From a virus (Duplodnaviria; Caudoviricetes): a stretch of 64,000 bases of DNA. The position numbers were made by a program, and so were the translations under genes. Location of the stretch: positions 9,590 through 73,589 of the IMG/VR virus record IMGVR_UViG_3300020047_007062. One strand, written 5' to 3'. Under the pieces are notes generated by a model. The model ran no database searches, was not told the DNA's origin, and saw only the letters and a list, made by a program, of their open reading frames with translations. Below are positions 44,727 to 45,289 of the stretch, piece after piece; the first letter of the stretch is position 1; each line of letters begins with the position of its first letter.

Positions 44727-44797
44727 GTGGATAGGCGCAAGTGTTAGTGTATTGATTTACAGTTGTTTTGTCATATTAAGTTGCGTGTATCCGCGAG

Positions 44798-45178
44798 TTG
44801 TGTGCAAGGCTACTTGTCCTTACTTTCAAGTGGTCGGACGGGAATTGATTTACTTTTCATAACACCATCCCAATCACCCCATTCAACACCTCCACGATAT
44901 TCAATAAAAAGACTACCATCTTCATCTACTCTGCCAATTTTTTCTACAATATGTTTAGCAAACATTTCTTTTAGCTGTTCAACTTGGTAATCAGAAAATA
45001 CCCTTAAAGTAATTTGGTTTGCCATCTTATTTTATTTTACACGCCCTGCACACAACAAAAGGCTTGCTGCAAGTAGGGCTTGACGTTAATAATTTGGCAG
45101 ACGAATAATTTGTGAACTTATGTTCCTTGCTCGGCGGTAGTGCTGCCAATTCCCTACCTGCAAAGCAAGCCCCGAACG
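44798..45178. mobile_element. integron-like gene cassette A
   Basis: G|TTGTGTGCA (44797-44806) is the exact reverse complement of TGCACACAAC (45047-45056); arms 45061-45078 and 45152-45171 with a 2-nt bulge; G|TTACGA at 45178. Confidence 0.75.
44810..45025 (-). CDS. cassette-borne hypothetical protein
   Basis: 71-aa ORF filling the space between the two 10-bp boxes. Confidence 0.7.
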   Translation of the reverse strand: MANQITLRVFSDYQVEQLKEMFAKHIVEKIGRVDEDGSLFIEYRGGVEWGDWDGVMKSKSIPVRPLESKDK

Positions 45179-45289
45179 TTACGATCAATATCTTTATGTC
45201 CCGCAAATATTTAGTTGGGTTGGGGCTGATCGGTTCACAATTAACGTCTTTTGGGTTTTCTGACTACTTGCAAACATTTTCTTTGCATC

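Follow-up and report, generated by a model that had tools for sequence, protein, structure and literature searches.

An integron-like solo gene cassette in a phage record and its probable place in an Xer-type system of Bacteroidota

The window analysed here is a stretch of 64,000 nucleotides that forms the 3′ 64 kb of a 73.6-kb virus record in IMG/VR (IMGVR_UViG_3300020047_007062, positions 9,590 to 73,589 of the record, which is linear and 77% complete). The record is that of a phage (Duplodnaviria; Caudoviricetes), and encodes a GroEL-like chaperonin, DnaB, an HNH endonuclease, very large tail proteins and a glycan operon. Integrons are generally regarded as all but missing from Bacteroidota and as uncommon in phages. 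An initial annotation, made from the letters of the window, proposed that positions 44730-45184 hold an integron-like cassette, here called cassette A, with the same architecture as a second one, cassette B, at an unlinked locus. This raises the question of whether cassette A is a mobile gene unit and, if it is, to which recombination system it belongs. We conclude that cassette A is real, a solo and orphan representative of an integron variant that is largely undescribed, and that the segment 44798-45178 is probably a single gene cassette from an integron-like system commonly found in Bacteroidota and their phages. The parts of the locus are the following.

44798-45178: cassette A unit, 381 bp, with its ends at the AAC/GTT boxes of the hairpin family described below
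44731-44797: 67-nt element, adjoining cassette A on the side to which its gene points, with a paralogue at 39110-39176
44797-44806: cassette-end box, GTTGTGTGCA on the plus strand and TGCACACAAC on the minus strand, directly 3′ of the gene and at the junction with the 67-nt element
44810-45025, minus strand: cargo gene (gene A), the open reading frame between the boxes, encoding a 71-aa protein
45056-45047, minus strand: inner box, GTTGTGTGCA on the minus strand, which closes the hairpin and is the exact reverse complement of 44797-44806
45189-45045, minus strand: attC-like imperfect hairpin of 145 nt (hairpin A), found by cmsearch with the covariance model R1 at full length (model positions 1-142)
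45061-45078: gene-proximal hairpin arm, 18 nt
45152-45171: gene-distal hairpin arm, 20 nt, differing from the gene-proximal arm by two extra bases and one mismatch
45178-45184: outer junction, G followed by TTACGA on the plus strand; on the minus strand (45184-45178) a box ending TAAC, divided between TAA and C

The features from which the initial annotation had argued are all present. Ten-nucleotide boxes that are exact inverses of one another lie at 44797 and 45047 on either side of the gene for the 71-aa protein, the hairpin arms pair with a 2-nt bulge, GTTACGA begins at 45178, and the inner AAC-to-GTT distance is 121 nt in A versus 118 nt in B. If one mismatch is allowed, the box repeat in A grows to 14 nt (13/14; 44797-44810 and 45043-45056). 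Compared with the attC consensus (R″, RYYYAAC; R′, GTTRRRY), hairpin A has both the AAC and the GTT and fits partly at the other box positions, and it has an asymmetric spacer in addition to the bulge. Folding of both strands, proposed as a check, reproduced the bulged pairing of the arms, but the energy was only mildly better than that of shuffled sequences (z −2.2 for the minus strand and −1.25 for the plus strand).

The same picture could in principle arise by chance, from an inverted repeat and a hairpin that happen to adjoin a small open reading frame. Perfect 10-nt inverted pairs 150-400 nt apart number 22 in the window, against a mean of 19.4 in 30 shuffles, so the box pair alone is not beyond chance, and both this frequency and the modest folding scores favour such an origin. 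Of these 22, only two have GTT at their start and AAC at their end, and both adjoin a hairpin scored by the model and a copy of the 67-nt element. Hairpin A was undetected by a scanner for hairpins with near-perfect arms, and a covariance model was used in its place. This model, R1, was built from 28 non-redundant, unrelated hairpin copies, none of them from this record, and was run in cmsearch with filters off. It gave 46.6 bits (E = 3.1e-8) for hairpin A on the minus strand and 14.2 bits on the plus strand; hairpin B, matched at full length, scored 115.9 bits (E = 6.1e-24) on the minus strand and 22 bits on the plus strand. No match besides A and B was returned across the window and the first 9.7 kb of the record, so that these are its only two sites, 5.6 kb apart with ordinary phage genes between them. 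The combination of boxes, hairpin and 67-nt element exceeds chance. Against E-values of this order, obtained on one strand only, a 67-nt element that is paralogous between the two loci and the breaks in homology at the boxes that are described next, an accidental origin is barely credible.

Among 5.8 billion clusters, the product of gene A has only two homologues, with 96% and 70% identity. The closer one belongs to a series of small genes, all in one orientation, on L025, a metagenome contig of 1.6 kb. This contig shares 87% DNA identity with the window over exactly 44797-45057, from box to box. Outside the boxes L025 diverges to unrelated sequence, and this again folds into long bulged hairpins on both sides. 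R1 finds three hairpins in the 1.6 kb, on the gene strand (E = 1e-13 to 2.5e-10), with the gene A homologue between hairpins. As 19 of the 24 codons that differ between gene A and L025 are synonymous and five are non-synonymous, gene A is a real gene under purifying selection. The second homologue is an ordinary gene that adjoins a phage integrase and has neither boxes nor hairpins.

Cassette B provides a second comparison.

39109-39463, minus strand: solo cassette B, made up of a 67-nt element, a 70-aa gene (gene B, 39177-39389) and a hairpin (39463-39324)

The outer junction of B, homologous to that of A at 45178, is at 39454. The cargo gene and the hairpin of B are unrelated to those of A, while the adjoining 67-nt elements are paralogous. 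In three independent contigs (L027-L029), DNA identity to B is 89-92%; it begins exactly at 39176 and stops at 39445-39463, around the outer hairpin box. Similarly, two other contigs, L031 and L032, share a 1.3-kb block with 99.7% identity, the left end of which falls exactly at the TAAC box. The breaks at the outer TAAC box, seen between B and L026-L029 and at the left end of the L031/L032 block, support a hairpin plus its gene as the unit that would usually move. The comparison of A with L025 shows that hairpins are exchangeable at the inner box too. Thus, the view of A as an integron-like cassette at an unlinked locus, built like B, stands: its ends are boxes of the family, homology with L025 breaks there, and its hairpin is a family member.

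L031 (positions 189-5823) and L032 are phage contigs with hairpin-bounded arrays, in which four DNA methyltransferases, a Sequestin-family protein and a SpoU methylase are encoded. The gene B family comprises at least 172 proteins, in which the C-terminal 45 residues are nearly invariant and the N-termini are mutually unrelated. The invariant part begins at the box, and each N-terminus derives from the loop and 3′ arm of the particular hairpin that precedes the gene, which places the exchange box inside the gene B reading frame.

The boxes of neighbouring hairpins are related to one another. When the 7 nt after the GTT of one hairpin were compared with the reverse complement of the 7 nt before the next AAC, 52 of 176 adjacent hairpin pairs (30%) matched at 7/7 positions and a further 30 at 6/7, while random box pairs matched at 7/7 in 0.5% and at 6/7 in 1.9% of cases. 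The two boxes of one and the same hairpin did so in 1.2% and 4.5% (mean 2.97/7, versus 2.52 for random pairs). Complementarity of 10 nt across a gene was also seen in L276, an array described below. Pairing of boxes across the gene is the signature of strand exchange inside the AAC/GTT box, as in integron cassettes.

This result bears on the proposal that the hairpin alone is a palindrome like a miniature inverted-repeat transposable element (MITE) or a repetitive extragenic palindromic (REP) sequence, which landed by an ordinary phage gene so that the cassette is illusory. Two points favour this: a census of MITEs (PMC11602168) found many palindromes of ~100-150 nt, a similar size, that are common to Bacteroidota and their viruses, and did not read them as cassettes, and the hairpins beside gene A differ between the window and L025. 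However, the two outer boxes of any one hairpin match little better than random pairs, in contrast to those on either side of a gene, whereas a transposing palindrome would predict the opposite. The flanks of cassette A are inverted and no direct target duplication was seen, and the homologous block of A consists of the gene and its boxes, not the hairpin. We therefore consider a MITE-like origin very unlikely.

The hairpin family is widespread. Among the matches listed, more than 120 IMG/VR contigs carry its arm motif, as do more than 120 contigs from genomes, and nearly all of the latter are from Bacteroidota (Flavobacterium, Chryseobacterium, Chitinophagaceae, Sphingobacteriales and Cytophagales). 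Arrays contain up to 8 hairpins per 10 kb. In a 169.7-kb IMG/VR contig, hairpin repeats extend over ~37 kb (~78-115.5 kb; 78121-115523), and the 14-kb segment L276 (106000-120000 of that contig) contains a cassette array with several DNA methyltransferases. Beside this array, on the strand of the cargo genes, is the gene for a 289-aa tyrosine recombinase (L276:9704-10570), with the box of the last cassette ~45 nt before it. The recombinase is Xer-like: it scored 206 bits against the XerA/integron-integrase model, whereas its match to the IntI model TIGR02249 was split into two stretches and, at 154.8 bits, fell short of the cut-off of 265. Its best solved relative is the archaeal XerA of Pyrococcus (4a8e; 154.7 bits in one stretch), compared with 99 bits in two stretches for VchIntIA (2a3v). 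Relatives of the recombinase are encoded in 458 IMG/VR contigs. At 80 of these loci that were examined, 74 of 76 hairpin matches were on the recombinase strand and all 76 were upstream of the recombinase gene. As the recombinase gene follows the cargo genes in the same orientation, each gene has its hairpin at its head, and the geometry of the hairpin arrays is the mirror image of that of a classical integron. The same holds for cassette A, where the family model reads the hairpin site on the gene's minus strand, so that hairpin A heads the gene and does not trail it.

In the chromosome of a Bacteroidota metagenome-assembled genome (CP058707), a 1-kb query containing a hairpin matched at least 30 places, on one strand, over ~500 kb (3475734-3977111), and tyrosine recombinases are encoded at 3.406 Mb and 3.986 Mb. 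If contiguous, this stretch would be an enormous cassette region.

The identity of the recombinase bears on whether hairpin A could instead be a classical integron attC, that is, a single-site CALIN (cluster of attC sites lacking integron-integrases) captured from, and mobilisable by, a bacterial IntI. Its general anatomy, with AAC/GTT boxes, a bulged stem and a variable loop, is that of an attC. In 21 phages, attC sites and CALINs have been predicted (Qi et al. 2023, PMC9892861), and one of these sites, P12002L_attC1 from a Polaribacter phage, belongs to the hairpin family (27.4 bits, E = 1.3e-4). Yet P12002L_attC1 was the sole failure among the six phage sites that were tried with IntI1 (PMC9892861). 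The recombinase of the family is below the IntI cut-off and nearest to an archaeal XerA, its arrays and their cargo point towards the recombinase gene, and the IntegronFinder 2.0 survey found almost no integrons in Bacteroidetes despite the abundance of the hairpins there. An IntI origin for cassette A is thus quite improbable. The initial annotation had suggested an attC x attI assay with a Bacteroidota IntI; as the enzyme to which the family is tied is a short Xer-like recombinase, that assay aims at the wrong enzyme.

No tyrosine recombinase, IntI included, was found in the 73.6-kb record, which is 77% complete, either as a match to PF00589 or by tblastn. Consequently, cassettes A and B are orphan solo cassettes, and the enzyme for both would have come from elsewhere. 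We propose that the units of this system are cut out as circles and inserted by the Xer-like recombinase acting on a folded single strand. Cassettes A and B would have been inserted by a recombinase supplied in trans, from the host or a co-infecting phage, and would now be fixed as orphan accessory genes, each beside a phage-specific 67-nt element in the attI position. A cultured phage appears in the same state. In the region 30000-39253 of Polaribacter phage P12002L, where methyltransferase and Mom-like genes are found, R1 with filters off detects six family hairpins on the gene strand, P12002L_attC1 being one of them. No Xer-like recombinase was found in its complete 48.7-kb genome, making this phage an orphan carrier too.

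The 67-nt elements at A and B have 56 identical columns of 101 (nhmmer E = 1.6e-16 and 3.1e-16), and both are occupied by cassettes. A third, empty copy was sought with nhmmer and is present neither in the 73.6-kb record nor in more than 400 other loci. A search with the pattern of the element returned 0 matches in IMG/VR and 80 in metagenomes, all of them chance matches with unrelated flanks; a partial exception to its phage-only occurrence is a stretch of 16 nt in L026. The element holds the position that attI would occupy in the recombinase-bearing arrays, with which A and B share their polarity. It is possible that it is a landing pad, the remnant of a lost system or part of the acquired DNA. 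The first of these, in which the phage carries two dedicated sites, both of which end at the exchange box, where single genes were dropped by the Xer-type recombinase of a host or co-infecting phage acting in trans, is a tentative reading that we consider doubtful. If it is right, the phage could sample the cassette pool of Bacteroidota without carrying the machinery.

Several observations weigh against the reading of A as a recombinase-mobilised cassette, the lack of a tyrosine recombinase in the record and the failure of P12002L_attC1 with IntI1 among them. In L025, gene A is flanked by other hairpins on both sides, and it follows that hairpin A and the gene have not always travelled together. 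The independent 381-bp cassette of the initial annotation is thus right in its size and ends, but its movement as a whole is not borne out. One boundary of the L031/L032 block is ~50 nt beyond the box, within a shared leader, which suggests that homologous exchange also occurs. A profile of 30 recombinase-proximal, attI-like sequences did not match the 67-nt elements, and local alignments of the elements with 60 recombinase-proximal regions scored about as well as shuffled sequences (p ~0.15 for A and 0.85 for B). Finally, a search of IMG/VR for relatives of the flanking 183-aa and 158-aa proteins returned nothing, and no empty site, circular form or cassette-free relative was found.

Two of these observations, the boundary in the shared leader and the phage without a recombinase, are what would be expected if the hairpins were regulatory modules (leaders, promoters or terminators) and the genes were shuffled by homologous recombination or template switching with no dedicated recombinase. 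The start codon of gene B is within its hairpin loop, as is the gene start of the last cassette in L276, and conserved A-rich motifs are common to the loops and to the leaders that follow the hairpins; both fit a regulatory role. However, most breakpoints are at the AAC/GTT boxes to the base, and the co-variation of boxes across the gene is predicted by exchange inside the box, not by homologous exchange in a stem or loop. The association with a single recombinase family is strict in both position and strand. When 44600-45400 was scanned, it contained no terminator-like sites, and no promoter of the Bacteroidota type or intrinsic terminator could be named with confidence. Shuffling of regulatory modules is thus an unlikely explanation, and we favour a cassette moved by the Xer-like recombinase.

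Gene A is the sole minus-strand gene within a block of plus-strand genes. The 71-aa protein has no match in Pfam or PHROG, and its ESM Atlas model is of low confidence (predicted local distance difference test 0.47). Our guess, from the company of DNA methyltransferases and a Sequestin-family protein in the arrays, is a role in host takeover or anti-defence. Directly to the right of cassette A is a free-standing HNH endonuclease gene (45251-45688, plus strand; PHROG 1571, E = 3.5e-19), which is perhaps another mobile gene that shares this intergenic hotspot. To the left is the gene for a 183-aa protein, the C-terminus of which (44640-44726, plus strand) resembles a dockerin or calcium-binding repeat (DLNVDG...); it has no match in Pfam or PHROG. 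The gene for the GroEL-like chaperonin (37465-39024, minus strand; Cpn60_TCP1, E = 1.5e-20) is directly downstream of cassette B, and the sequence ahead of it (39025-39110) reads as a Bacteroidota-type promoter (TTTG, ~19 nt, then TAAATTTG). Neither the DNA of 43400-46700 nor the protein of gene B matched GenBank phages, and Rfam and tRNA/tmRNA searches returned nothing.

Taken together, the data show a very abundant counterpart of the integron, mirrored in its layout and associated with an Xer-like enzyme, in Bacteroidota and their phages. This system appears to move small accessory genes between the two, DNA methyltransferases and likely anti-defence genes among them. The window is the minimal case, a phage without the recombinase in which two solo cassettes occupy unlinked sites and each adjoins a copy of the 67-nt element. 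If the element is truly a target, hairpin and element would form a compact substrate pair for the study of chemistry, strand choice and mobilisation in trans, and would explain how lytic phages gain moron genes with base-pair precision.

No description of an Xer-type cassette system in Bacteroidota was found in the literature searched, only fragments of one (Qi et al. 2023). The hairpins resemble MITEs and Correia-type repeats in being palindromic intergenic elements found in both Bacteroidota and viruses, but differ in that complementarity runs across genes and not within the element, and in that no target duplication was seen. PeSL cassettes of T4-type phages, which Arbiol and co-workers reportedly described in 2010, are said to consist of repeated stem-loops that flank small accessory genes in hyperplastic regions and accompany their shuffling. 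In contrast to PeSL shuffling, which proceeds by homologous recombination of near-identical repeats, the hairpins here are divergent, with fixed boxes and an associated recombinase.

The attP of CTX phage, used by XerCD, is a precedent for an Xer tyrosine recombinase acting on a single-strand hairpin, and the mobile element need not encode the enzyme. Elements that exploit Xer in this way are whole genomes entering at the chromosomal dif site, unlike the small gene units considered here, which occur in arrays and at phage sites, and the recombinase of the hairpin family is a dedicated paralogue that adjoins the array.

A CALIN consists of at least two attC sites within a few kb, the threshold used by IntegronFinder. 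With one cassette at each of two sites 5.6 kb apart, the record falls outside this definition. Like the phage attC sites and CALINs of Qi et al. 2023 (PMC9892861), A and B are orphan attC-like sites that bound accessory genes, which in the published cases are often DNA methyltransferases of virulent Bacteroidota phages. That study handled its sites as those of ordinary integrons, and described neither the Xer-like recombinase nor the mirrored geometry nor the abundance of the family.

From classical integrons, the system differs in its recombinase, which is short (~270-290 aa), Xer-like and below the IntI cut-off with a split IntI match, and in its sites, which surveys of integrons in Bacteroidetes have largely missed. 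The window itself differs in having neither an array nor a recombinase, only two solo units. The likenesses are nonetheless extensive. As in classical integrons, especially the sedentary chromosomal ones, the units are promoter-poor and carry a single gene, the hairpins are imperfect with outer boxes that end in AAC or begin with GTT, each unit opens with sequence complementary to its end box, and many units with accessory cargo are found beside one tyrosine recombinase.
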